A DNA stretch of 64,000 nt, taken from positions 5,219,248-5,283,247 of the forward strand of contig OY970325.1 in the NCBI GenBank assembly GCA_963717145.1. Direction: 5' to 3'. The notes beneath the pieces were generated by a model. That model was not told where the DNA came from. It saw only the letters and a program-made list of their open reading frames with translations, and ran no database searches. The stretch comes from an uncultured Armatimonadetes bacterium (GTDB lineage: Bacteria; Armatimonadota; UBA5829; DTJY01). The translations under genes and the position numbers were made by a program. Positions 2,531-64,000 of this stretch are shown here, in pieces. The stretch's first letter is position 1. Each line of letters begins with the position of its first letter.

Positions 2531-2810
2531 CAGCCAAGATGTCCCCCTTACGAAGGGGGACCGGCCTCTGGGCCGAGGGGGTTTCCGCGTGTGGGTGCGC
2601 ATACAAACCTCCCCCGGCCTGCTGGCCGGCCCCTCCTTCGTAAGGAGGGGCGCAGACGGCTTCCGGGCCGAGGGGGTTGCCGCGCGCGGGTCCACGAAAC
2701 GGAACCGCCAAGACGCCAAGGACGCCAAGCGAACCTCCCCCGGCCTGCTGGCCGGCCCCTCCTTCGTAAGGAGGGGCGCAGACGGCCTGCTGGCCGAGGA
2801 GGTTTCAACA
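2531..2810. repeat. Cluster of three REP-like hairpin elements (family A: GGCCGGCCCCTCCTTCGTAAGGAGGGGC plus GAAACCTCCCCCGGCCTGCTGGCC)
   Basis: Near-identical copies at 2609-2680 and 2734-2810, plus a variant at 2531-2592. The same element occurs in inverted orientation at 7258-7309 and 7715-7770. Confidence 0.8.
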
Positions 2811-4960
2811 TGCGACAGATCGACTACAAGACATATCTCGACAAAGTGTACGGATGCTGGATCGGCAAGTGCGTCGCCGGCACGATCGGCGCTCCCTATG
2901 AAGGCGCGAAGGAGCTGTTCGACTTCGAGTACGACCCGAAGCTGATCGAGAAGATGCTCCCGAACGACGACCTCGACCTCCAGGTGCTCTGGCTGTCCGT
3001 CTTGGAAGAGAAAGGGATCGCCTTCACCTCCGACGACCTCGCCGATGCGTTCCTCAACAGGTGCAAGTACGCGCCCGGGGAGTACGCCTTCTTCAAGAAG
3101 AACTATGCCAGAGGCATCCATCCGCCGCTGAGTGGCGCGTACAACAACCGCTACTACATCGAGGGAATGGGCTGCCCGATCCGCTCCGAGGTATGGGCCT
3201 GCATCGCTCCCGGCAACCCGCAACTCGCCGCCGAACTCGCGGCGAAGGACGGGGTGCTCGATCACGCGGGGAACTCGGTCTACGCCGAGCAGTTCCTCGC
3301 CGCACTCGAGGCCGCCGCGTTCTTCGAGAGCGACATCGGGAAGCTCGTCGAGATCGGACTCAGTGTGATCCCCGAGGACTCGAAGATCGCCGGCCTGATC
3401 CGCGACGTCCGCGACTGGTGCCAGCTTGTGGGAGACGACTCGGGAGCGACTGTAGGGGCGTGCCTTGTGCCGCCTGTGACCGTCGACCAGGCGGCACAAG
3501 GCACGCCCCTACAGTCGCCTGTGACCGTCGACCAGGCGGCACAAGGCACGCCCCTACAGTCGCCTGCCGTAAGTGAGGACACCGGCGCTCCGGACTGGCG
3601 GTATGTCCGAAGCCAAATCCTGCGGAAGTACGGCCATCCGGACTGCACGAACATGTACCAGAACATGGGGATCACGCTCCTGGCGCTCTTCCTGGGAAGG
3701 GACTTCCTCGACACGACCATGATGGCGCTCAACTGCGGGTTCGACACCGACTGCACCTGCGCGACCGCCGGCTCGGTGCTCGGCATCATCCAGGGCGCGG
3801 AGTACCTGAGCACGACGCACGAGTTCCCCGAGCAGCGCTTCAAGCTCGGAGTCGATGCGCCTCGCCGATCCGACCGCGTCCTCGATCTGGCCGAGGATAC
3901 GTGCCTGATGGGCCTCCATTTCGCCGAGTACTTGAACAGGGATGTGGCGATCATTGACGCGCCGAAGCCGCCTCAAATCGAGCGGCCGGAGTACGAAACG
4001 GTCAAGGTCTCGATCGATTACCAGGGAGTCCCGGCGATGGGCATCGGTGAGACGCGAAAGATCAAGATTCTGTTTGACAACGAGCGCGTCAGCCCAGTCG
4101 GGATAGCGGTCTCCCTGACCGTCCCTGATGGCTGGGACGTATCCCCGACCTCCGCCGATCTGCTTCTCGATCCCGGCGTCAACTCCTGGGAGATCGAGGT
4201 GACCGTTCCGGCGGATATTCCGGTGCTGGATGAGCGGAACATGTTCGAGTTGGGATTCGATTCTTCCGCCGAGAGACCGGAAACCCCTCCCCAGCCCTCC
4301 CCGCAACGGAGAGGGAATCGCACTCTCTGCCCCCTCTCCGTTGCGGGGAGGGCTGGGGAGGGGTTTCCGGCTCGCTACCCATTCGGCATCGTCGGGGCGT
4401 CGGTGTGGGAAGTCTTCGGTCCATTCTGGCAGAACATCGGGCTCATCTCAGAGGGTACCAAGGACGAGATGGCGGATGTCGGCCGGATATACCACCTCAA
4501 CACGCGCGTCGATCCCGACCGGGAGTACATGACGCTCGACGAGATTCTCGGGCCGAAGATCACCGGCGACGCGGCGAAGGAAGGGCAGGTCGTCTGCTTC
4601 GGCGAGGACCTGATGTCGATGTCGGACGCGGTCGGATTCCAGGGGCCGTGCGCGGTGTATATGGTGCGGCGGATGATCTCGCCGGAGGACCGAACGCTCG
4701 GGGTGCTCGTCGGCCATACGGACGCGTACAAGCTGTGGATCAATGGGGAACTGATCAGCCGGCGGGACGACGTCGATTGGTGGACCGCCGAGAACGCGCA
4801 CATCCACGGGGTGAAGATCAACAAGGGCGAGAACATGATCGTCCTGCAGATGATCCGGCGCAGTTCCGAGGCGAAACTGAGCATCCTCTTCGTGAAGCGC
4901 GGCTCATGCTCCGAGCACTACTACGACTTCGCGTCGGTGAACCCGCGGCTCAGGGAGTAA
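2810..4960 (+). CDS. ADP-ribosylglycohydrolase family protein with a C-terminal beta-rich extension. Carries in-frame palindromic insertions.
   Basis: N-terminal GCWIGKCVAGTIGAPYEG and later GFDTDCTCATAGSVLG match the two conserved ADP-ribosylglycohydrolase metal-binding motifs. The caller ORF began at 2591 inside REP repeats. RBS-spaced ATG at 2810 (MRQIDYK). Confidence 0.6.
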   Translation: MRQIDYKTYLDKVYGCWIGKCVAGTIGAPYEGAKELFDFEYDPKLIEKMLPNDDLDLQVLWLSVLEEKGIAFTSDDLADAFLNRCKYAPGEYAFFKKNYARGIHPPLSGAYNNRYYIEGMGCPIRSEVWACIAPGNPQLAAELAAKDGVLDHAGNSVYAEQFLAALEAAAFFESDIGKLVEIGLSVIPEDSKIAGLIRDVRDWCQLVGDDSGATVGACLVPPVTVDQAAQGTPLQSPVTVDQAAQGTPLQSPAVSEDTGAPDWRYVRSQILRKYGHPDCTNMYQNMGITLLALFLGRDFLDTTMMALNCGFDTDCTCATAGSVLGIIQGAEYLSTTHEFPEQRFKLGVDAPRRSDRVLDLAEDTCLMGLHFAEYLNRDVAIIDAPKPPQIERPEYETVKVSIDYQGVPAMGIGETRKIKILFDNERVSPVGIAVSLTVPDGWDVSPTSADLLLDPGVNSWEIEVTVPADIPVLDERNMFELGFDSSAERPETPPQPSPQRRGNRTLCPLSVAGRAGEGFPARYPFGIVGASVWEVFGPFWQNIGLISEGTKDEMADVGRIYHLNTRVDPDREYMTLDEILGPKITGDAAKEGQVVCFGEDLMSMSDAVGFQGPCAVYMVRRMISPEDRTLGVLVGHTDAYKLWINGELISRRDDVDWWTAENAHIHGVKINKGENMIVLQMIRRSSEAKLSILFVKRGSCSEHYYDFASVNPRLRE
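3452..3557. repeat. Two tandem copies of the family B palindromic element (GTAGGGGCGTGCCTTGTGCCGCC ... GGCGGCACAAGGCACGCCCCTAC) inserted in frame in the CDS
   Basis: A 51-bp unit is duplicated in tandem. The frame is preserved and it translates to the repeated peptide PVTVDQAAQGTPLQS. Confidence 0.85.
4277..4370. repeat. About 94-bp perfect-arm palindrome (CCGGAAACCCCTCCCCAGCCCTCCCCGCAACGGAGAGGG ... CCCTCTCCGTTGCGGGGAGGGCTGGGGAGGGGTTTCCGG) inside the same CDS, in frame
   Basis: Inverted repeat read directly from the sequence. ORF 2591-4960 stays open across it. Confidence 0.8.
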
Positions 4961-5054
4961 GGGAGTGTGGGAGTATGGGAGTGTGGGGTATGGGAGTGTG
5001 GGAGTGTGGGAGTCCGGATCGCCCATACTCCCACACTCCCATACTCCCATACTC
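4961..5054. repeat. Hairpin built from GGGAGT/GGGAGTATG hexamer repeats, immediately after the stop codon at 4958-4960
   Basis: GGGAGTGTGGGAGTATGGGAGTGTGGG ... CCCATACTCCCACACTCCCATACTCCCATACTC. Related copy at 6184-6268. Confidence 0.8.
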
Positions 5055-5059
5055 TGCTA

Positions 5060-5959
5060 CTACTCCTCGTCGCCTCTGCCAAAGATGCGGGTCAGGAGGC
5101 CTGGCTTCCGGGGACTCTCGACCTCCGCCGGCTCATCGTCCGGCCAGTGGAGATCGTTCGCGGCTGCATTCAGTCGGCGGAAGAGATCGTCCGCGGATTC
5201 ATCCTGCTCGGTCTTATCCATGGAGTCGGCCTCAGATTGCGGCTTCACAATTGTTACCTGGGCGATCTCGGGTTCAGCCTCAGAGGCGGAGCGCGTCTCT
5301 TCGACCACCTCGGCCTCAACAGCGACCACCTCCTCACCTCGGGCTGACCGGGTCTCCGTGGGTCGAACGTCCCCCAGTGACTCCATGACAGGGGCGGGAG
5401 CGTCCACCGTCTGGGCGGAAGTGGTCTGTGCACTCGGCATCTCGACCGGCTCGGCTTCGACGTGCATCTCGGGCTTCGGCGACTCGACCTGCGGCGGAGA
5501 GGTCACGGGCGTCGTGACCGCGGAGACCTCTTTGGTCGGATCAGCCATTACCGGCCCGCTCGTCGTCCGGAAAATCTCGTCCTGCATCTCGCCGGCAAGC
5601 TCGTGTGTCCGGTGAAAGAGGTCGTTCACCCTGGACATGGTCTCTTCCCACTCGGGAGTGCCGCCGTCTTCGTTCTCCTTGGGGGCAGGCAGCTCCTTCA
5701 CCAGATGCGTGAACTCGGCGGAGAGCGCCAGGTTTGTGTCCTGCATCTGGTGGAGCACCGAACTGGCGCGATGGAGCATATAGTTCAACTCGCGCTGGCG
5801 TTGAAGTAGTTCGGAGGCGATGTGGTTCATCGAGGTCTCGCGAGTGCGGAAGTCCTCGACCTGCTGCTGGAGAAGCTTGCTCCGTTCGGCCAGAACAGCC
5901 TTGTGCTTGAGCGCTCTGAGCAGCTTGTCCTTCATGTTCTCGCTGAAATCTGGTGACAC
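5060..5959 (-). CDS. Hypothetical protein with a coiled-coil N-terminal half and an acidic, low-complexity C-terminal half
   Basis: 299-aa ORF with a coiled-coil-like N-terminus and no obvious stops in the surrounding GC-rich frame. No recognisable catalytic motif. Confidence 0.4.
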   Translation of the reverse strand: MSPDFSENMKDKLLRALKHKAVLAERSKLLQQQVEDFRTRETSMNHIASELLQRQRELNYMLHRASSVLHQMQDTNLALSAEFTHLVKELPAPKENEDGGTPEWEETMSRVNDLFHRTHELAGEMQDEIFRTTSGPVMADPTKEVSAVTTPVTSPPQVESPKPEMHVEAEPVEMPSAQTTSAQTVDAPAPVMESLGDVRPTETRSARGEEVVAVEAEVVEETRSASEAEPEIAQVTIVKPQSEADSMDKTEQDESADDLFRRLNAAANDLHWPDDEPAEVESPRKPGLLTRIFGRGDEE

Positions 5960-6183
5960 GAATCATCCCTCGCTTGGTTCCCTGACGACTCCCGTCGTCG
6001 GGGATACTGGTACTTATACCAGGATTATCGGCGGTTTCGACGGCTTTTCTGAGGCGGCACTGCCAGTTCAAGTTTATCACCATTCTCGGAGGATGTAAAC
6101 AAATGATGCCCGCCGACCCCTCATTCATCTCTACGCGTCACTCGGCCCAGGGGTTCCGGGTGAAGGAATCCGTCGTCCTGGAG

Positions 6184-6268
6184 GAGTATGGGAGTGTGGG
6201 AGAATGGGAGAATGGGAGTGTGGGAGTCCGGAACGCCCATACCCCCATTCTCCCACACCCCCATTCTC
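6184..6268. repeat. Second copy of the GGGAGT-type hexamer-repeat hairpin, just upstream of the RBS of the sugar-binding protein gene
   Basis: GGAGTATGGGAGTGTGGGAGAATGGGAGAATGGGAGTGTGGGAGTCCGGAACGCCCATACCCCCATTCTCCCACACCCCCATTCTC. Confidence 0.8.
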
Positions 6269-6285
6269 TCCCCAGGAGGCATGCC

Positions 6286-7257
6286 ATGAAGAACCTCGCC
6301 AGGTTGCTGGTGATCCTTTCGATACTGACGCTCGTCGGGTGCAGCAAGCAGCCCAAACCATCCGGTCGCATCACGATCGCCGTCATCCCCAAGGGCACGA
6401 TGCACGAGTTCTGGAAGACCGTCCATGCCGGCGCGGTCAAGGCATCGAAGGAACTCGACGTAGATATCATCTGGAAAGGCCCGATGAAGGAGGACGACAG
6501 GGACGCCCAGATTGCGGTCGTCGAGGACTTCATCAGCAAGGGTGTCTCGGGCATCGCGCTCGCCCCCCTCGACGACATGGCGCTCCGAGCACCGGTCGCC
6601 AATGCCACCAGGAGCGGCATCCCGGTCGTGATCTTCGACTCCGGCCTCCAGGGAAGCGACTTCATGAGCTTCGTCGCCACCGACAATCACAAGGGCGGAC
6701 AGATCGCGGGCGACTATATGGCCAAGCTGCTCGGCGACAAGGGCAGCGTCATGATGCTGCGGTACAACGAGGGATCGAACAGCACGATGCAGCGCGAGAA
6801 GGGCTTCCTCGATGCCATCGCCAGACATGCGGGCATCAAGGTCGTCAGTTCGAACCAGTATGGCGGAGTGACCACTGAGAGCGCGTACAAGGCGGGCGAG
6901 AACCTGCTCTCCCGCTTCAAGGACGTTGACGGCATCTTCTGCCCGAACGAGTCGACCACCTTCGGCATGCTCCGCGCGCTTCAGGATGGCGGATATGCCG
7001 GCAAGGTGAAGTTCGTCGGCTTCGACGCGTCCCAGCAGCTCATCGACGGCATGAAGAAGGGGCAGATCGACGGTCTCGTGCTCCAGGACCCGATGTTCAT
7101 GGGCTACATGGCGGTGAAAACCGTCGTCCAGAGCATCCGCGGCGCCCAGGTCGAGAATCGGATCGACACCGGCGCGAAACTCGTCACGCCTGAGAATATG
7201 GATACGCCCGAGATGAAGGCCCTCCTCCGCCCGGACCTCGACAAGTGGCTCAAGTAA
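6286..7257 (+). CDS. Sugar ABC transporter substrate-binding lipoprotein (periplasmic binding protein, ribose/galactose-binding type)
   Basis: AGGAGG RBS followed by ATG at 6286. Lipoprotein signal MKNLARLLVILSILTLVGC. Periplasmic-binding-protein type I motifs (IAVIPKG, GVSGIALAPLD, FDAS). Confidence 0.8.
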   Translation: MKNLARLLVILSILTLVGCSKQPKPSGRITIAVIPKGTMHEFWKTVHAGAVKASKELDVDIIWKGPMKEDDRDAQIAVVEDFISKGVSGIALAPLDDMALRAPVANATRSGIPVVIFDSGLQGSDFMSFVATDNHKGGQIAGDYMAKLLGDKGSVMMLRYNEGSNSTMQREKGFLDAIARHAGIKVVSSNQYGGVTTESAYKAGENLLSRFKDVDGIFCPNESTTFGMLRALQDGGYAGKVKFVGFDASQQLIDGMKKGQIDGLVLQDPMFMGYMAVKTVVQSIRGAQVENRIDTGAKLVTPENMDTPEMKALLRPDLDKWLK

Positions 7258-7309
7258 GCCCCTCCTTACGAAGGAGGGGCCGGCCAGCAGGCCGGGGGAG
7301 GTTTCCGGA
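7258..7309. repeat. Family A REP hairpin (inverted orientation) directly after the stop of the binding-protein gene
   Basis: GCCCCTCCTTACGAAGGAGGGGCCGGCCAGCAGGCCGGGGGAGGTTTCCGG. Confidence 0.8.
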
Positions 7310-7371
7310 TGGGCTGCTGGATGCGCTGCCGCTTGCAGGGGGGTGGCCGGAGGAGGTTAGAGGCTTGACCG

Positions 7372-7769
7372 AGTTGTTCAACCGGAAGACGGTGACCGCC
7401 AGACGTCGAGCACTGCGCGCTATCATGCCCGAGCCGGAAGTCGTCCTGTGGTCCAAGTTGAAGGGCAGGCAGGTGGACGGCGTCAAGTTTCGCAGGCAGT
7501 ACAGTGTCGGTCCGTACATCATCGACTTCTTCGCGCCAAAGGCCAAGCTTGCCATAGAAGTGGATGGCGACACCCATTCTGCGGAGGGGGCTGGTGAGCG
7601 TGATAGACAGAGGCAAGCTTACATTGAGGGTTTTGGCATCCGTGTGCTTCGGTTCACAAACAGGGAGGTTCTGCGCAACTTAGACGGTGTGCTGGTGACG
7701 ATACAACAAGCCATCTGCGAGGCCACGCCGGAAAACCCCCTCGGCCCAGAGGCCGGTCCCCCTTCGTAA
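7372..7769 (+). CDS. DUF559-type endonuclease-domain protein (very-short-patch-repair-like fold)
   Basis: Motifs LWSKLKGRQVDGVKFRRQ, IIDFFAPKAKLAIEVDG, H, RD and GIRVLRFTNREV are typical of DUF559. Start is uncertain (TTG 7372 or ATG 7428). The caller's Met at 7245 lies in the REP. Confidence 0.55.
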
Positions 7770-7770
7770 G
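7715..7770. repeat. Family A-variant REP hairpin overlapping the 3' end of the DUF559 gene
   Basis: CCGGAAAACCCCCTCGGCCCAGAGGCCGGTCCCCCTTCGTAAGGGGGAC. It is the reverse complement of the element at 2531-2592. Confidence 0.75.
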
Positions 7771-7803
7771 GGGGACATCTCGGTTGCGCCAGGTTGTCTT
7801 GAC

Positions 7804-8784
7804 ATGGAGATTTCGCAGTCAGAGACCAGAATGCGCGTCATGCTCACGTGGCTCAACCGGCTCGGGCCGGTGCTCGGGCTCGCGCTGGTCTACGGCCTGT
7901 TCGCGGCGCTCGCAGGTGAGAGCTTCACCGGCGTGCGGAATATGGAGACCATCGCGCGTCAGACCGCAGTCGTCGGGACCGCCGCGCTCGGGATGACGAT
8001 GGTTATCATCGCCGGAGGGATCGATCTCTCGGTCGGCTCGATCATCGCGCTCAGCACAGTCACGATCGCCTCATGCCTTGCGAAGGGCTTCAGCCCGCTC
8101 ACGGCCGCATTCGCCGGAATCATCGCAGGACTGATCTGCGGCCTCATCAACGGTTTCATCATCACCCGCTTGCGAGTCGTGCCGTTTATCGTCACGCTCG
8201 GCACGCTGCTCGCGGTTCGGGGCATCGCCAAAGGATTCGCCCACGAGCAGAAGGTGAACGCGCCGTGGACCTCGCTGAACGACCTGCTCGCCACTCTCCC
8301 TCCCGACAAGCACTGGATGATCGTCCCGCCGGGCGTATGGATCATGCTCATCATGGCGGTCGGGGTGGCGGTGATGCTACGTTACTCGCGATTCGGCAGG
8401 CACGTCTTCGCGATCGGATCGAGCGAGCAGACCTCGAGGCTCTCGGGGATCGATGTGCAGCGGATGAAGCTGATGGTCTATGCCGGGAGCGCCGCCTTCG
8501 CCGGGCTCGCTGGGTTGATGCAGTTCTCGCGCCTGACCGTCGGCGACCCGACCGCCGCGACGGGCCTCGAACTCGATATTATCGCCGCTGTCGTGATCGG
8601 CGGTGGGAGCCTTTCCGGCGGCGAGGGATCGGTGTTCGGGGCGTTGATCGGCGCGCTGATCATGACCGTCATCCGATCCGGATGCTCTCAGATAGGCCTC
8701 GAGAACTGGGTGCAGGAGATCATCACCGGCGGCATCATCGTCGTCGCGGTAGCCCTCGATCGCCTGCGCCACCGGGCGCGGTGA
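7804..8784 (+). CDS. Sugar ABC transporter permease (RbsC/XylH-like, CUT2 family)
   Basis: 326 aa with about 10 TM helices. Carries the conserved permease EAA-like loop region. Typical neighbour of the type I binding protein. Confidence 0.8.
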   Translation: MEISQSETRMRVMLTWLNRLGPVLGLALVYGLFAALAGESFTGVRNMETIARQTAVVGTAALGMTMVIIAGGIDLSVGSIIALSTVTIASCLAKGFSPLTAAFAGIIAGLICGLINGFIITRLRVVPFIVTLGTLLAVRGIAKGFAHEQKVNAPWTSLNDLLATLPPDKHWMIVPPGVWIMLIMAVGVAVMLRYSRFGRHVFAIGSSEQTSRLSGIDVQRMKLMVYAGSAAFAGLAGLMQFSRLTVGDPTAATGLELDIIAAVVIGGGSLSGGEGSVFGALIGALIMTVIRSGCSQIGLENWVQEIITGGIIVVAVALDRLRHRAR

Positions 8785-10930: not shown

Positions 10931-12886
10931 ATGGTACGATTTGCCAGTCTTGTGGCCCGTGAGGGAAAGATATTGAAGACGACTGTTCTGCTGTCGGGCA
11001 ATGAGGCGATCGCCCGAGGCGCATATGAGGCCGGTGTTCGGGTCGCCGCGGGTTACCCCGGCACCCCGAGCACCGAGATACTTGAGAACATCACCCAGTA
11101 CGAGACGATCTACGCCGAGTGGTCGCCGAATGAGAAGGTTGCCCTCGAGGTCGCTCTCGGCGCTGCTCTCGGAGGCGCTCGGGCGCTCTGCACCATGAAG
11201 CACGTCGGCGTCAACGTCGCGTCCGACCCGCTGATGACCGCCTCGTACACCGGCATCAACCGTGGACTCGTGCTGGTGAGCGCCGACGACCCCGGCATGC
11301 ACAGCTCCCAGAACGAACAGGACAACCGTCACTACGCCCGGTTCGCCAAGATCCCGATGCTCGAACCGGCCGACAGCCAGGAGTGCAGGGACTTCACCAT
11401 CCGCGCCTTCGAGATCAGCGAAGCGTATGATACCCCGGTGCTGCTCCGAACGACCACCCGCGTGAACCACGGGAAATCGACCGTCAGCCTCTCTGAGCCG
11501 CAGGAGCCGGTCTTCGGCAGGTTTGAGTGCAACCTTCAGAAATACGTGATGATCCCCGCATACGCGATGAAGCGCCATGTGATCGTGGAGGAGCGGATGA
11601 TCCGCCTGAGGGAGTTGTCCAACGCCTCCGGTGTCGCCATTGCCCGTAGTGGCCGTGCCTCTGTGCCGGCCTCCGAGATCACTGGCCGGCACAGAGGCAC
11701 GGCCACTACGGGCAATGGCGACCTGCACCGCATCGAATGGGTCGACACGTCGATCGGCGTGATCACCTCGGGGATCGCATACCAGTACGTCAGGGAGGTG
11801 CTCCCGGAGGCGTCGGTACTGAAGCTCGGGATGACCTATCCGCTGCCCGACCGCCTGATCCGCGAGTTCGCGTCGAAGGTCGAGAAGCTGTACGTCGTCG
11901 AGGAACTCGATCCGTTCCTGGAGGATCAGATCAAGGCGCTCGGAATCGAGGTCATCGGCAAGGAGCGCTTCCCGATCATCGGCGAGCTGAACCCGAGGCT
12001 CGTCGCCGCTGGATTCGACTTGGGTAGGGGCGTGCCTTGTGCCGCCTGTGACGAGGTACCGGGCGGAGATGGACAGGCCACGGGCGGCACAAGGCACGCC
12101 CCTACAACCCAGCGGTTGGAGGGTGATATCCCCGGGCGGCCGCCGGTCCTCTGCCCGGGATGCCCTCACCGCGGGTTCTACCAGGTTCTGAAGAAGATGA
12201 AGGCCATCGTGACCGGCGACATCGGATGCTATACGCTCGGAGTGCTTCCGCCGCTCGAGGTAATGGACACCTGCATCTGCATGGGCGCATCGATCGGGAC
12301 CGCGCTCGGCATGAAGCGCGCTCAGTCGCCCGACGACAAGCGCCCGGTCGTGGCGGTGATCGGCGACTCAACTTTCGTCCACTCCGGGATCACCGGCCTG
12401 ATCGATGCCGTCTACAACGGCACGGCCGCGACGATATGCATCCTCGACAACTCCACGACCGCGATGACCGGCGGGCAGGAGCATCCGGCGTCGGGGAAGA
12501 CGCTCATGGGCAGTCCGGCGCCGAAGCTCGATCTGGCGGCCCTCGCACGTGCGATCGGTGTCGAGGACGTGCTGGTGGTCGATCCATACGATCTGGAGGC
12601 AGTCGAGAAGGCGCTCAGGTATGCGACCCGGACGGATAAGCCTTCGGTGATCATTACGAACAGGCCGTGCGTGCTGAGAGACAGGTCGGAGAAGCCGCCG
12701 AAGTCCTCCATCGCGCTGGAAATGTGTACCGGCTGCCAGGTGTGCTTCCGGATCGGATGCCCGGCGATGGAGTCGGTGGCGGTCGACGACAAGTTGCGCG
12801 CGCGGATCAACGCCAACCTGTGTCAGAGCTGTGGTGTCTGCATCCAGGTATGCCGCTTCGAGGCCATTGGGAGGCCGGAGGAATGA
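10931..12886 (+). CDS. iorA: Indolepyruvate:ferredoxin oxidoreductase alpha subunit, carrying two in-frame palindromic-element insertions
   Basis: N-terminal VLLSGNEAIARGAYEAGV and GYPGTPSTEI thiamine-pyrophosphate-enzyme motifs. C-terminal 4Fe-4S motifs CTGCQVCFRIGCP and CQSCGVCIQVC. 651 aa. Confidence 0.85.
   Translation: MVRFASLVAREGKILKTTVLLSGNEAIARGAYEAGVRVAAGYPGTPSTEILENITQYETIYAEWSPNEKVALEVALGAALGGARALCTMKHVGVNVASDPLMTASYTGINRGLVLVSADDPGMHSSQNEQDNRHYARFAKIPMLEPADSQECRDFTIRAFEISEAYDTPVLLRTTTRVNHGKSTVSLSEPQEPVFGRFECNLQKYVMIPAYAMKRHVIVEERMIRLRELSNASGVAIARSGRASVPASEITGRHRGTATTGNGDLHRIEWVDTSIGVITSGIAYQYVREVLPEASVLKLGMTYPLPDRLIREFASKVEKLYVVEELDPFLEDQIKALGIEVIGKERFPIIGELNPRLVAAGFDLGRGVPCAACDEVPGGDGQATGGTRHAPTTQRLEGDIPGRPPVLCPGCPHRGFYQVLKKMKAIVTGDIGCYTLGVLPPLEVMDTCICMGASIGTALGMKRAQSPDDKRPVVAVIGDSTFVHSGITGLIDAVYNGTAATICILDNSTTAMTGGQEHPASGKTLMGSPAPKLDLAALARAIGVEDVLVVDPYDLEAVEKALRYATRTDKPSVIITNRPCVLRDRSEKPPKSSIALEMCTGCQVCFRIGCPAMESVAVDDKLRARINANLCQSCGVCIQVCRFEAIGRPEE
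11636..11719. repeat. Family C palindromic element (GTAGTGGCCGTGCCTCTGTGCCGGCC ... GGCCGGCACAGAGGCACGGCCACTAC) inserted in frame within iorA
   Basis: Perfect inverted repeat. The frame is maintained and it translates to IARSGRASVPASEITGRHRGTATTGNG. Related copies at 24166-24230, 24326-24350 (half) and 50770-50800 (half). Confidence 0.85.
12024..12105. repeat. Family B palindromic element inserted in frame within iorA
   Basis: GTAGGGGCGTGCCTTGTGCCGCC ... GGCGGCACAAGGCACGCCCCTAC, translating to GRGVPCAACDEVPGGDGQATGGTRHAPT. Same family as 3452-3557, 25661-25721 and 54097-54155. Confidence 0.85.
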
Positions 12887-19840: not shown

Positions 19841-19927
19841 GGAGTTGTACTCCCGAACCGGAGACTGGTTTGGCGGAGTTCAACTCCGCGTCGGTTCGGC
19901 GGGATGGAGTGCAACTCCATCCCGAAC
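19841..19927. repeat. Family D REP-like element (GGAGTTGTACTCC / GGAGTTCAACTCCG hairpins) in the livH-livM intercistronic region
   Basis: GGGAGTTGTACTCCCGAACCGGAGACTGGTTTGGCGGAGTTCAACTCCGCGTCGGTTCGGCGGGATGGAGTGCAACTCCATCCCG. Related copy at 36121-36228. Confidence 0.75.
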
Positions 19928-21334: not shown

Positions 21335-22128
21335 TGGAGACCTCAGCCGCTTTGGTCCAGGTGCGGAAGGCACGCAAGGTTTTCGGCGGACTCACAGCCG
21401 TCGATGATGTTACGTTCGACGTGGCGCTTGGGCAGTTGTTTGCGGTCATCGGGCCAAACGGAGCAGGGAAGAGCACCATGCTGAACCTGCTATCCGGCGT
21501 CCTCAAGCCGACGGACGGCGAGATCTTCTTCCGGCAGACCGCCACTTCGGGCCTCCCGCCATACGAGATCGCCGGCCTGGGGATCGCCAGGACGTTCCAG
21601 AATGTACAGCTCTTCCCGAACATGACCGTCCTCGAAAACGTCATGGTGGGACGGCATCTGCGCTCCAGTCAGGGACTCCTGGCGGCCGCGCTCCGTTTCC
21701 CCGGGCAGATCAGGGAAGAGCGGCGGATCCTCGAATCAGCGCTCGAGCGGCTGGACTCGGTCGGGCTCGCGGACAAGCGCGAGGACTCCGCCTCGAGCTT
21801 GTCGTTCGGACAGCAGCGGCTCCTCGAGATCGCCCGCGCGCTCGCGCCTGAGCCGAAGATGCTTCTGCTGGACGAGCCGGCATCCGGTCTCAGTTCCCAT
21901 GAGACCGAGACGCTCGCGGATTACCTCCTGCGAATCGTCGCCGAGGGGATCACAGTCATCCTCGTGGACCACGACATGCAGTTCGTGATGGACATATCCG
22001 ACCACGTTGTAGTGCTCGACCACGGGCAGAAGATCGCCGAGGGAACGCCGACGGAGGTGCAGGCCGATCGGAAGGTCATCGCCGCATACCTGGGAGAGGA
22101 GGTCCACGGTCATGCTAAGACTGACTAG
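21331..22128 (+). CDS. ABC transporter ATP-binding protein (LivG-like)
   Basis: Walker A GPNGAGKST, signature LSFGQQRLLEIARAL, Walker B LLLDEPASG. ATGA overlap with livM. Confidence 0.85.
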   Translation: MMETSAALVQVRKARKVFGGLTAVDDVTFDVALGQLFAVIGPNGAGKSTMLNLLSGVLKPTDGEIFFRQTATSGLPPYEIAGLGIARTFQNVQLFPNMTVLENVMVGRHLRSSQGLLAAALRFPGQIREERRILESALERLDSVGLADKREDSASSLSFGQQRLLEIARALAPEPKMLLLDEPASGLSSHETETLADYLLRIVAEGITVILVDHDMQFVMDISDHVVVLDHGQKIAEGTPTEVQADRKVIAAYLGEEVHGHAKTD

Positions 22129-22849
22129 CCTCGTCTCGGGGTATGGCAGGATCACGGTCCTCCGCCGCATATCGATGCACGTGGGGGCCGGCGAGATCGT
22201 CGCGGTTATCGGTGCGAACGGAGCGGGCAAGACCACGCTCCTCGATACGGTATGTGGAGTGCTCCCGGCGCAGTCGGGGTCGATCAAGCTGGACGGGAAG
22301 GAAGTCGCCGGGGCCGCCCCGGAGCGCCTGGTGAGGATGGGCATGTCGCACGCGCCTCAGGGACGCCAGCTTTTCCCCGACATGACGGTCTACGAGAACC
22401 TGGTTCTCGGCGCGTACAGAAGGAGCCGCTCCGAGAAGCGAACTCAGATGCGCGGCGACCTGGAGAACGTCTACTCTATCTTCCCGACGCTGGAGGAGCG
22501 ACACGGTCAGCTCGCCGGGACGCTTTCCGGCGGTGAACAGCAGATGCTCGCGATCGGACGAGCGCTGATGTCGAAGCCGAGGCTCCTGCTGCTCGATGAG
22601 CCATCGATGGGCCTCGCGCCGCTCGTCATCAAGGACATTTTCAAAGTCATCAGCGCACTGCACAAGCAGGGTACGACTGTGTTGGTTGTCGAACAGAACG
22701 CCAAGGCAGCGCTCTCTATCGCCCAGCGAGGCTACGTCATAGAGACGGGGCGCGTCATCCTCGAGGGGACGGCTCACGAGCTGGAGCGCAATCCCGAGGT
22801 CCAGAGAGCCTATCTGGGCAAGGGTTACAAGCACATGATAGAAAGCTGA
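22112..22849 (+). CDS. ABC transporter ATP-binding protein (LivF-like)
   Basis: Walker A GANGAGKTT, signature LSGGEQQMLAIGRAL, Walker B LLLDEPSMG. Confidence 0.85.
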   Translation: MLRLTSLVSGYGRITVLRRISMHVGAGEIVAVIGANGAGKTTLLDTVCGVLPAQSGSIKLDGKEVAGAAPERLVRMGMSHAPQGRQLFPDMTVYENLVLGAYRRSRSEKRTQMRGDLENVYSIFPTLEERHGQLAGTLSGGEQQMLAIGRALMSKPRLLLLDEPSMGLAPLVIKDIFKVISALHKQGTTVLVVEQNAKAALSIAQRGYVIETGRVILEGTAHELERNPEVQRAYLGKGYKHMIES

Positions 22850-32230: not shown

Positions 32231-32971
32231 ATGAACAGCGGTTATCCCTACTCAGCGCCAATCGGGAGGATCACAGCGGGTATTGAGCTGGGCACACTCG
32301 CTAACAAGATTATCGATTTCGTTCGCCAGCAGCTGCCAGCATGGAGGGACCACCCCGACCGTGATGATGTCCAGTCGGAGTTCCGCCTAACCTCCCAACT
32401 CTGTGTATTCCTCAATGCCAGGGCGCGCCAGGCTCGCTTCTCTATGATCCAGTTCCATCACGAGCTACCGCAGCCCCGGAGTCGAAGCGTCGATCTATCA
32501 GTACATCCGTTGGATCCCCTGCAGATCGATGCCCGACTCTTCTCAGTATTTCACCCAGTTCTGGTGTTAGAGTGCAAGCGACTTCCCCCTCCAGATCCAA
32601 AACGCGAGAGGGAGTATGTGACAGGCGATGCGAACAAGCGGAGCGGCGGCATACAACGTTTCAAATTGGGTTTGCATGGTTCTGACACCGATGTCGCGGG
32701 TATGATTGGATTTCTCCAGGAGGCCACCGCTCCACATTGGCATAGCACAATCAACGGATGGATTCTTGAGCTATGCAACGGCACTCCGGCCGATGGATGT
32801 ACTTGGAGCAGTGACGAGGTTCTATCGGAGATCGATTGCAGTGTTTCCGGTGGCGTTACCAGCTACTGCTCAGTTCACTCGAGGACTTCCTCAAGATCAG
32901 GCCAGCCTATCACCATCCATCATGTGTGGGTTGCGATGAACCAGCTACAGGGTGCTTGTAGAACGAGTTGA
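32231..32971 (+). CDS. PD-(D/E)xK-like nuclease-fold protein, translationally coupled to the methyltransferase gene
   Basis: Stop TAG at 32226-32228 and ATG at 32231. Possible nuclease motif SVDLSVHP ... PVLVLECKRL (D ... E-x-K). Confidence 0.45.
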   Translation: MNSGYPYSAPIGRITAGIELGTLANKIIDFVRQQLPAWRDHPDRDDVQSEFRLTSQLCVFLNARARQARFSMIQFHHELPQPRSRSVDLSVHPLDPLQIDARLFSVFHPVLVLECKRLPPPDPKREREYVTGDANKRSGGIQRFKLGLHGSDTDVAGMIGFLQEATAPHWHSTINGWILELCNGTPADGCTWSSDEVLSEIDCSVSGGVTSYCSVHSRTSSRSGQPITIHHVWVAMNQLQGACRTS

Positions 32972-33130
32972 TGCCGGTAAGTGGGGTGGTTGGTGGGGCT
33001 ATCTCAGGGAAAGATGTGACCAAATCGTTCTACAGGGGTTCTGTAGAACGATTTGACGCCGGTAAGTGGGGTATTTGGTGGAGGTAACTCACGGAAAGAC
33101 GCCGCCAACGCGGTCTACAGACAGTCTGTA
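32955..33130. repeat. Boundary repeat block at the right end of the low-GC island: direct repeats of TGTAGAACGAnTTGAnGCCGGTAAGTGGGGT plus two hairpins
   Basis: Copies begin at about 32958 and 33041. Hairpins CAAATCGTTCTACAG/CTGTAGAACGATTTG and CGCCGCCAACgcgGTCTACAG/CTGTAGACggaGTTGGCGGCG. Confidence 0.7.
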
Positions 33131-36083: not shown

Positions 36084-36120
36084 AGTTCGATCTCCTTCGG
36101 GAGCGCCGATCACGTTCGGG

Positions 36121-36228
36121 CTGGAGTTGTACTCCAGCCCGCATAACTGACCGCGGAGTTGGACTCCGCTCGGACGGGGAGTACAACTCCCCTGGTTAGT
36201 GTCGCGTGCCGGAGTACAACTCCGGCAC
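36121..36228. repeat. Family D REP-like element (three GGAGTTGTACTCC-type hairpins) between convergent or divergent genes
   Basis: CTGGAGTTGTACTCCAG, GCGGAGTTGGACTCCGC, GGGGAGTACAACTCCCC, CCGGAGTACAACTCCGG. Confidence 0.8.
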
Positions 36229-36239
36229 GAACAGGGTGG

Positions 36240-50462: not shown

Positions 50463-50638
50463 CTACTCATACTCATACTCATACTCATACTCATACTCAA
50501 TCCGGGGCGAAGCATTGGCGATTCTGTCCCGAAGTCGGCGCAGTCCGAAGGGCCAATGCTTCGCCCCTACATCCTGGGCGGAGAACTGGCGATTCTGTCC
50601 CGAAGTCGGTACAGTCCGATTGGCCGATGTTTCGCCCC
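50463..50638. repeat. (ATACTC)6 microsatellite followed by two tandem copies of an about 65-bp palindrome
   Basis: CCGGGGCGAAGCATTGGCGATTCTGTCCCGAAGTCGGCGCAGTCCGAAGGGCCAATGCTTCGCCCCTAC, then a variant copy. Confidence 0.8.
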
Positions 50639-50890
50639 TACACCCGGAGATGTCTGGTCTAGCGCAGCTTTCTTCTGCGGCAACTACGGTATATATACCG
50701 TGCTGTACTTGCCGCATAGTGCGGTAAGTCGCGCACTCCCCCAGGACGTGCCGTTGCCGCCGTCCCGCCGGATGGCCGGCACGGAGGCACGGCCACTACG
50801 GTTTTCGTCGCACCGGCCTGCTTGTCCTGCGAGGCAGGGAAACGGATGGTTTACAATCCCGGGCGCTTTCCACTATCATTGTCCCACGCA

Positions 50891-63443: not shown

Positions 63444-63651
63444 AGTAATACTCTCCTATGTTCCGATCCGTCGTTCCCGACAATGATCGGTCAGGTACTG
63501 CAACGGCTTGCGTTCAGATTAGCCGTCCATTTCCATTGTCGGAGGGCCGGGCCGGCAAAGTTACCTATACTGTAGTCTTTTTTCGCGATTTCTTGTCCCA
63601 CGTCTCTGGGAAGATGACCTTCCGTCTATGGAAAGCAGGCCATTAACCTGC

Positions 63652-63773
63652 AGTAAACAGGCCTCCCAACCATGGTAAACAGGCCTCCCAACCATGGTAA
63701 ACAGGCCTCCCAACCGTGGTAAACAGGCCTCCCAACCGTGGTAAACAGGCTTTCCGACCATGGTGAACAGAGG
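63652..63773. repeat. Tandem array of about 5.5 copies of a 22-bp unit (GGTAAACAGGCCTCCCAACCAT)
   Basis: Direct tandem repeats with no unique spacers. Confidence 0.85.
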
Positions 63774-64000
63774 TTCCGTCGATGGAAGTGACGCCTCCGA
63801 CCGGCTCCCGGAAGCCTTCCGGGGATCCCCCCAAGGCCTGACGCAGAGCCCGAGACGCACTTGATGCCGGCGCAGGGGGCACAAACCACGCGCCTCCACC
63901 CTCCGCCGAATCGTGCTGGCAAAGAGCGGGTTGCTCGTCCATTCCATGCTCATTGCGGAGGTGGATACCCAGAAGAGGATATAGAGCCTTCGTCGCCGAA

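Follow-up and report, generated by a model that had tools for sequence, protein, structure and literature searches.

The subject of this analysis is a 64-kb stretch of DNA (64,000 nucleotides of contig OY970325.1; hereafter, the window) from an uncultured Armatimonadetes bacterium and, within it, a small nuclease gene lodged between two transporter genes. The gene for an RbsB-like sugar-binding lipoprotein, i.e. a binding protein of the CUT2 type, and the gene for an RbsC-like permease of an ATP-binding cassette (ABC) transporter are separated by approximately 535 bp, and this gap contains an intact gene for a DUF559 protein, a nuclease with the Vsr fold of the PD-(D/E)xK type, bracketed by inverted hairpin repeats that we call family A (Table 1). 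The first-pass annotation of the window, made from the sequence alone, had already described the DUF559 gene in a gap of about 550 bp between the two transporter genes, and Pfam matches bear out this description.

Table 1. Features of the insertion locus and of the related gene-less array (positions in the window)
Feature	Position	Strand	Description
RbsB-like sugar-binding lipoprotein gene (CUT2-type binding protein)	6286-7257	+	Pfam Peripla_BP_4, E 2e-66
Left end module	7258-7304	+	perfect 10-bp-stem hairpin 7258-7280, small GGCC hairpin 7280-7295, G-run 7296-7304
Extra segment, 55 nt, absent from L001	7305-7358, up to gene start (row 7305-7364)	+	direct repeat D2; by-eye comparison
DUF559 (Vsr-fold PD-(D/E)xK) nuclease gene, 134 aa, TTG start	7365-7769	+	Pfam DUF559, E 1e-29
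Right end module	7730-7775 (row extends to 7790)	+	mirror image of the left: C-run, small hairpin, hairpin
RbsC-like ABC permease gene	7804-8784, start likely 7831	+	Pfam BPD_transp_2, E 1.5e-49
Gene-less miniature of the bracket	2537-2651	-	left module, 19-20-nt spacer, right module
Two 'closed' units (C-arm, hairpin, G-arm; 73 nt, 95% alike)	2657-2804	-	repeat family D13

The comparison with the orthologous operon of relatives, which had been proposed together with that description, indicates that the gap arose by insertion. In one relative (L087), with a binding protein 90% identical to that of the window, the transporter genes are 10 nt apart; in three others (L088-L090), where the binding protein is 84% identical and the upstream region is syntenic with the window (genes for an ADP-ribosylglycohydrolase and, on the minus strand, for a 286-aa protein), the distance is 25-45 nt. 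Neither a DUF559 gene nor a family A hairpin lies between the transporter genes in any of the four. At the junctions, homology to L087 and L088 stops at the stop codon of the binding-protein gene and restarts at about 7842, inside the permease gene. Because the orthologous loci of the relatives are, accordingly, empty sites, sequence comparison supports the reading of the DUF559-containing gap as a lineage-specific insertion at the binding-protein/permease junction. The short intergenic gap of the relatives itself consists of heptamer-like repeats (GTGAACG/GTGACCA; L087 1620-1650, L088 9003-9095), accompanied in L088 by AATCCGMAA repeats.

The insert is delimited by two end modules that together form an inverted repeat, with 33-nt arms that are 76% complementary and 17-nt arms that are 88% complementary. 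The left module, made up of a hairpin (GCCCCTCCTTACGAAGGAGGGGC), a small hairpin (CCGGCCAGCAGGCCGG) and a G-run (GGGAGGTTT), starts at the base next to the TAA stop codon of the binding-protein gene (7255-7257); the right module consists of a C-run (GGAAAACCCCCTC), a small hairpin (GGCCCAGAGGCC) and a hairpin (TCCCCCTTCGTAAGGGGGA, 7757-7775), 3' of which some 14 nt (CATCTCGGTTGCG) are held in common with the gene-less copy described below. The 22-nt core of the left module is present in three copies in the window and found no match in any shuffle of it. The inverted family A elements had previously been placed at 7258-7309 and 7715-7770; the bracket stands, with its boundaries corrected to those of Table 1. 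The gene and its bracket overlap: the TAA stop codon of the DUF559 gene (7767-7769) falls inside the right hairpin, being composed of the loop T and the first two bases of the 3' arm, and the C-terminal tail of the protein (residues ~117-134) is encoded by the right module. On the left, the extra 55-nt segment ends in a second, degenerate G-arm (GGCCGGAGGAGGTT, 7345-7358), which doubles as the ribosome-binding site, and this segment may be a remnant of an older left end, in which case the left end would be composite. A search of the insert revealed no site resembling a promoter or a terminator, and no Rfam family matched at gathering thresholds across the whole window, the only match around the insert being a chance one to a snoRNA (E 0.28). 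Contigs of the run ERR12037368 in Logan, as well as L001, stop approximately 30 nt past the binding-protein gene, or within the right hairpin; contigs ending at hairpins imply that these repeats break short-read assemblies.

The same module is found elsewhere in a different context. The closest homologue of the DUF559 protein (P0002, 83% identity) is encoded on contig L001, after a gene that bears no relation to that of the binding protein; there, the left module stands directly before the ribosome-binding site, with the G-run abutting it, and the right module extends over the stop codon. The ends of the two copies are nearly identical (52 of 53 positions on the left, 39 of 39 on the right), whereas the coding sequences are only 85.8% identical. 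The dN/dS ratio between them is 0.235, so that the gene is under purifying selection.

The open reading frame (ORF) that contains the gene (7245-7769) matches PF04480 with 102.9 bits (cut-off, 20.6) over profile positions 3-108 of 109. Translation starts at TTG 7365, which is preceded by a ribosome-binding site, GGAGGAGG, and the 20 N-terminal residues (MTELFNRK..RRR.LR) are kept in homologues; the public annotation begins 20 codons further in (P0001, 114 aa). In an alignment of 24 sequences (A1), D54, E65, D67, H71 and D80 are invariant, in a D...ExD..H pattern, and the Vsr-type catalytic residues are intact in the protein of the window. The closest solved structure by sequence is that of an 'endonuclease-like protein' of Neisseria gonorrhoeae, PDB 3HRL (E 1.3e-17, residues 21-119, the catalytic region included). 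The only domains found in the protein were DUF559 and MTES_1575; an HUH Y1 (IS200-like) transposase domain was not among them.

In the window, the bracket occurs once more without the gene (Table 1). The left module of this miniature (2606-2651) is identical to the left end of the insert at 46 of 46 positions and its right module (2537-2584) to the right end at 48 of 48, with ~14 more similar bases. As DNA, the miniature folds into a single long hairpin (-43.4 kcal/mol, z -5.75), and its spacer and right module still read as residues 117-134 of the DUF559 protein with 72% identity (tblastn E 8e-4). What the gene-less form lacks in comparison with the occupied one is a segment of ~410 bp with the ribosome-binding site and the catalytic domain; such a miniature could have arisen by deletion from the full module or be a target that has remained unoccupied. 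Together with the two closed units, it forms an array filling the gap between the co-oriented genes 343-2499 and 2810-4960.

An unoccupied target is what would be expected under the main rival to the interpretation favoured below, namely that the DUF559 gene is a free-standing homing endonuclease, which we consider unlikely. The gene-less doublet would then be the empty target, with the near-palindromic centre cut by a dimer of the nuclease and the gene copied in by recombinational repair, and the hairpin modules would be homology arms and target and not part of the element. The presence/absence polymorphism at the orthologous site, combined with an intact nuclease ORF, is of the kind shown by free-standing homing endonuclease genes; the 46-48-nt arms of the miniature are identical to those of the occupied site, the difference being the ~410-bp segment alone; in a gene-less doublet from another locus (L137), the G-run directly abuts the C-run; the C-terminal tail of the protein is read from flank sequence; and the decayed gene copies that lie beside intact ones in some of the loci surveyed below fit a cycle of invasion and decay. 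Moreover, homing endonucleases with the Vsr fold are known (I-Bth0305I, PMC3239194, and the family in PMC2677866). These Vsr-like (EDxHD) enzymes resemble the system described here in the fold superfamily, in the selfish presence/absence polymorphism at a defined site and, possibly, in a palindromic target split by the insertion, but their genes are found within group I introns, beside split inteins or in phages, whereas the DUF559 gene is free-standing, chromosomal, bracketed by hairpins and nearly absent from viral contigs. A search with the protein did not match I-Bth0305I (PDB 3R3P) at E <= 0.01, and no intron, intein or phage residence was found, all of which argues against membership in the EDxHD family. 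Homing is also difficult to reconcile with the empty sites of the relatives, which lack family A hairpins, so that the hairpins must have come with the gene or earlier, with the coexistence of an uncut empty site and an intact gene in one genome, and with the apparently single copy of the gene although targets are present. Finally, only one close relative turned up among 2.9 million viral contigs; a phage-borne origin was rejected on the same ground.

The association between the gene and the hairpins is not limited to this lineage. A metagenome scan with the 24-sequence alignment yielded 80 DUF559 loci (43-60% amino-acid identity), of which 69 could be tested for inverted flanks and 75 entered a census of hairpins. 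For the inverted-flank score, the 130 nt that precede the start were aligned with the 170 nt that follow the end of the domain, the latter in reverse complement, and the same geometry moved by at least 700 nt provided shifted controls. The median score was 34 for the 69 loci and 16 for the controls; a score of 28 or more was reached by 62% of the DUF559 genes, as compared to 0.16% of the shifted controls (p 2e-19); among 112 further ORFs of these loci, the proportion was 1.8%. Hairpin bracketing is, then, a specific and widespread property of this DUF559 subfamily. Given this difference between the DUF559 genes and their neighbours, gene and hairpins appear to belong together as partners. The first-pass annotation had spoken of a hairpin-flanked cargo insertion; the insertion holds, whereas the notion of an arbitrary cargo does not.

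The flanks in question are remarkably uniform. All strong cases contain a perfect hairpin (C/T)CCC(C/T)CC-TT-nnn-AA-GG(A/G)GGG(A/G) followed by a 2-5-nt spacer and a G-run, with the mirror image downstream, the consensus being a CCCCTCC-TTnnnAA-GGAGGGG hairpin plus G-run. A perfect C-rich hairpin occurs within 200 nt upstream of the gene in 60 of the 75 loci and around the stop codon in 47, against a background of 39 such hairpins in 219,909 nt, or 0.04 per equivalent interval. When selection was on the core CTTnnnAAG alone, the next six positions paired in 71-87% of the cases in flanks and in 30-38% of those elsewhere; at several sites, stem positions alternate between C:G and T:A, i.e. show compensatory changes. 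Such changes, together with the pairing, indicate that the hairpin structure is under selection. Gene-less doublets of the same bracket are present in L137 and L167, and permuted doublets in L124 and L172. Decayed DUF559 copies, either tandem or fragmentary, lie beside intact ones in L093 (2-142), L098 (295-402), L112 (189-1406) and L113 (4861-5049), the fragment in L113 being bracketed by a hairpin of another type, CCCCCTCCCATCGGGAGGGGG. Cultured isolates of Picosynechococcus, Pseudanabaena and Deinococcus have related flanks as well. Two of these DUF559 genes are located in operons, namely a DUF499/DUF1156 operon in Picosynechococcus PCC 7003 and the hpa operon in Deinococcus NW-56. These examples come from a search of a plasmid collection, which returned 23 distant, single-copy DUF559 homologues.

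The specificity of the bracket bears directly on another explanation, which we hold to be quite unlikely: that the protein is a solitary Vsr-like repair nuclease, comparable to VsrA of Caulobacter, around which REP-like hairpins merely accumulate, the gene having arrived by unrelated horizontal transfer or by repeat recombination. DUF559 proteins can indeed be Vsr-like repair enzymes without linkage to a methyltransferase (PMC12907096), and purifying selection on the gene, the stable synteny seen in some lineages and the occurrence, in this genome, of several further families of hairpin repeats beside other genes would all be compatible with such a role. With simple accumulation, however, one would not expect matching inverted flanks at 62% of the DUF559 genes but only at 1.8% of the neighbouring ones, nor ends that have accompanied the gene to another context and are better conserved than the coding sequence. 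Furthermore, hairpin cores identical to those of the window flank DUF559 genes from different organisms, the proteins of which are only ~50% identical. The Vsr protein of Escherichia coli and VsrA resemble the DUF559 protein in the fold, the catalytic residues, the small size and stand-alone nature, and the possible lack of linkage to a methyltransferase, but no hairpin bracket has been described for either, whereas the bracket of the window moves with the gene. No methyltransferase gene adjoins the DUF559 gene, the neighbours of which are the binding-protein and permease genes; hence the linkage typical of a Vsr repair system is missing here, although, as VsrA demonstrates, it is not obligatory.

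The position of the repeat units relative to the start codon points to an additional function. In approximately 45% of the bracketed loci, the distance between the G-run and the start codon is 0-19 nt, which corresponds to the position of a Shine-Dalgarno sequence; for this reason, the hairpin/G-run units probably control the translation of the DUF559 gene as well, to judge by the sequences. A broader version, in which the hairpins act in RNA, with the G-run as the Shine-Dalgarno sequence of the DUF559 gene sequestered by the C-run or the hairpin arms, or with the protein processing the operon transcript and so limiting harm, appears improbable to us. This placement of the G-run would suit it, as would the resemblance of the hairpin arms AAGGAGG and CCUCCUU to the Shine-Dalgarno sequence and its complement, and the lack of a promoter or terminator in a module co-oriented with its neighbours; Vsr-like RAP/FASTK proteins are reported to act on RNA (PMC11879112). 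In the other half of the loci, however, the unit is 25-100 nt away from the start, and gene-less units and arrays occur far from any DUF559 start. Action in RNA would explain how the gene is expressed, yet leave the insertion, the miniature and the conserved ends unaccounted for, and it may hold alongside the interpretation that we favour.

The orientation of the genes is biased: in 35 loci the two neighbours share one orientation, and in 32 of these DUF559 points the same way; the gaps beside it (medians, 95 and 83 nt) are largely filled by hairpin units. This bias, along with the lack of an invertase gene nearby and the identity, across samples, of the 10 listed places of another family member, P0097, speaks against an invertible cassette in which the inverted repeats would be the sites for programmed inversion of the DUF559 segment. 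In favour of such a cassette is a survey of inverted-repeat-flanked genes (PMC9881135): the predicted 'inversion targets' found there to be enriched include, in a line of a table, 'DUF559 domain-containing protein', with an odds ratio of 14.3, and 'Endonuclease domain-containing protein', with one of 9.6, the nearest earlier hint of the association described here. Since inverted flanks as such explain the DUF559 enrichment, it follows trivially from them, and we reject programmed inversion as very improbable.

We favour a different interpretation, for which we see an even chance: the insert is a promoter-less module of ~535 bp, [hairpin][G-run]-DUF559-[C-run][hairpin], which belongs to a large, apparently undescribed class of repeat-plus-nuclease elements with a partnership like that of REPIN and RAYT, and which entered the binding-protein/permease junction in this lineage. 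In such a partnership, a PD-(D/E)xK nuclease would take the place held by an HUH transposase in REPIN/RAYT. The substrate recognised and cut by the nuclease, which would probably act as a dimer, would be either its own hairpin/G-run units or, in a doublet, the palindromic junction between G-run and C-run; the units, occasionally with the gene between them, would then be copied by repair or replication into new intergenic sites between co-oriented genes. The sequences show the insertion, the bracket with its conserved ends, the gene-less forms, purifying selection on the gene, the association across lineages and the orientation bias, whereas action of the nuclease on the hairpins, with movement as its result, is inferred.

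Several observations weigh against this interpretation. No target-site duplication is recognisable at the junctions with L087 and L088, and a PD-(D/E)xK nuclease is unable to rejoin DNA alone, so a transposition-like step would need host functions. The left end of the insert, with its extra 55 nt, is not pristine, and about a third of the loci surveyed show no clear inverted repeat. The copy number looks low: the window contains one DUF559 gene and only five family A hairpins, at two sites, and the 90% cluster of the window protein is one sequence on one contig. P0097, for its part, occupies one identical locus in all 10 places listed, of 13 contigs carrying it; accordingly, the possibility that it provides identical DUF559 copies in different contexts was rejected. 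Synteny can be stable, too: in L097, L100, L101, L103, L117, L123, L136 and L146, at 80-90% nucleotide divergence, the gene has stayed between the genes for fumarate hydratase and a UbiA-like protein, usually with the upstream hairpin alone remaining, and the members of the pairs L116/L135 and L140/L169 differ in one flank. Several DUF559 lineages are, in short, stably syntenic, whereas the lineage of the window is not, as seen from the different context in L001 and the empty sites in L087-L090. In view of the low copy number and the stable synteny in some lineages, movement is occasional and not of the kind typical of insertion sequences (IS); either it is rare or the syntenic copies are fixed. 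Attempts to count family A copies by way of peptides in mis-called ORFs gave no match at E <= 10, and a scan of a genome collection with the loose pattern CCTTACGAAGGN{4,5}CCGGCC gave 85 chance matches, among which only that in L020 is hairpin-like.

Among known systems, REP/REPIN-RAYT (Bertels & Rainey 2011, PMC3116915) is one of the closest. As in that system, a nuclease gene, apparently in a single copy, is found within inverted short palindromic repeats; arrays of the repeat occur, as do inverted doublets that lack the gene and fold into a long hairpin; and repeat and gene diversify together between lineages, with inheritance that may be mostly vertical and occasional relocation. Unlike the RAYT proteins, DUF559 is a Vsr-fold PD-(D/E)xK enzyme and not an HUH tyrosine transposase, with no obvious strand-rejoining chemistry, and its ribosome-binding site and C-terminal codons lie within the repeat units. 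Within the 64 kb of the window, the DUF559 repeat is found at only two sites (five hairpins). Miniature inverted-repeat transposable elements (MITEs) and their parent insertion sequences similarly have terminal inverted repeats, with ends shared by full-length and miniature copies; here, however, neither a DDE nor any other known transposase was found and no target-site duplication was seen, the copy number is low and the ends are perfect hairpins. An IS/MITE transposon was therefore rejected in spite of the inverted ends. An integron gene cassette was rejected as well: by eye, there are no RYYYAAC/GTTRRRY cores, hairpins are present on both sides of the ORF, and there is no integrase in the neighbourhood. 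The DUF559 proteins represented by 3HRL and by YcjD of E. coli (NCBIfam PRK09767) are similar in domain and size and functionally uncharacterised; with 62.7 bits as compared to the equivalog cut-off of 218 bits, the window protein is not an orthologue in the PRK09767 sense.

The literature that we surveyed on proteins with DUF559, Vsr or endonuclease domains in relation to repeats, selfish elements, homing or RAYT/REP, although incompletely covered, contains no description of this association, and neither does that on small dispersed repeats in cyanobacteria. The wider repeat-plus-DUF559 pattern is therefore, to our knowledge, new, albeit akin to known selfish systems of repeats and nucleases. 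Besides REP/RAYT, we know of few short palindromic repeats of bacteria with an established origin or means of spread. DUF559 is one of the large nuclease families of 'unknown function': a search with the threshold E <= 1e-3 gave 25,771 clusters, and 10,512 were left at E <= 1e-10. The specific tie to one hairpin architecture across lineages suggests that its members act on their own flanking repeats. It is conceivable, though we would put this short of an even chance, that the small DUF559 proteins (>10,000 clusters at 50% identity) in general are the nuclease partners of a widespread but so far unrecognised class of REP-like hairpins. If so, they would constitute a second repeat-and-nuclease system, independent of REPIN/RAYT and based on a different chemistry, that of a Vsr-fold enzyme; it would insert between co-oriented genes and spawn gene-less miniatures of its own. 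For annotation, the hairpins matter not only by breaking assemblies but also by adding spurious N- and C-terminal extensions to predicted proteins and by yielding false calls of 'programmed inversion'.

The transporter genes at the locus deserve separate comment. The binding protein matches RbsB/allose-binding-like models of NCBIfam below the equivalog cut-offs, and the permease gives a ribose permease-like match; the start of the latter is probably at 7831 because a 317-aa product is called elsewhere. The real start of the binding protein is the ATG at 6286, followed by a lipoprotein signal, and the public annotation (P0122, 384 aa) is N-terminally extended. Upstream of the binding-protein gene lies a minus-strand gene and downstream of the permease gene a NIF3 gene, also on the minus strand. 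It had been claimed that the cognate ATPase gene is absent from the locus, and a profile search agrees: no ABC ATPase gene adjoins the pair, and the sole ABC ATPase within the window is LivF-like (22013-22846). The arrangement characteristic of CUT2 (ribose-type) operons, with binding protein, permease and a fused double ATPase together, is thus found neither here nor in L087-L090, where no ABC ATPase was detected in the available flanks, which extend to 8 kb at most for L088-L090 and comprise only a 3-kb contig for L087. As the ATPase is missing in all four relatives, its absence is ancestral: the ATPase-less transporter is an older trait, separate from the insertion, and not damage caused by it. 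In L088-L090, the permease gene is followed by genes for a PAS/HisKA_2 kinase and an ANTAR response regulator, which raises the possibility of a sensing role for the ATPase-less pair.

The window is rich in repeats of other kinds. In comparison with the 662-aa orthologue in L088, the ADP-ribosylglycohydrolase gene (2810-4960) carries two in-frame insertions of ~32 and ~35 aa, at 3451-3560 and ~4250-4360, both composed of hairpin repeats that belong to other families (TGTAGGGGCGTGCCTTGTGCCGCC... and a unit of the PPQPSPQRRG type); in such insertion into coding sequence they are similar to the Rickettsia palindromic elements. A second hairpin family, at 4946-5063 and 6175-6277, consists of 8-nt GGGAGTGT/GGGAGAAT repeats that fold back on CTCCCACA; it flanks the minus-strand gene 5060-5959 on both sides and is translated as the N-terminal extension of P0122. 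Two dispersed families, a ~63-nt hairpin (TGTAGGGGCGTGCCTTGTGCCGCC...GGCGGCACAAGGCACGCCCCTACA) and GGCCGGCACAGAGGCACGGCCACTAC, occur at 3451, 3496, 12023, 25660 and 54096, and also at 11684, 24205 and 50774, with at least one copy (12023-12109) within a long ORF (10931-12886). Yet another palindromic family is represented by three perfect hairpins with an 11-bp stem (CGGGnnGGAGTnnnACTCCnnCCCG; 19900-19924, 36117-36141 and 36205-36229). Two-copy tandem repeats are found at 32945-33114 (85 nt), with a perfect 15-bp-stem hairpin inside (33021-33055), and at 50500-50641 (71 nt), and a tandem array of about seven 22-nt units (GTAAACAGGCCTCCCAACCATG) lies at the end of the window (63631-63784). Finally, three pairs of segments that are 77-92% identical and 0.9-1.5 kb apart (36828-37973/38336-39482, 60097-60423/60976-61302 and 27547-27784/28564-28801) are probably tandemly duplicated genes.

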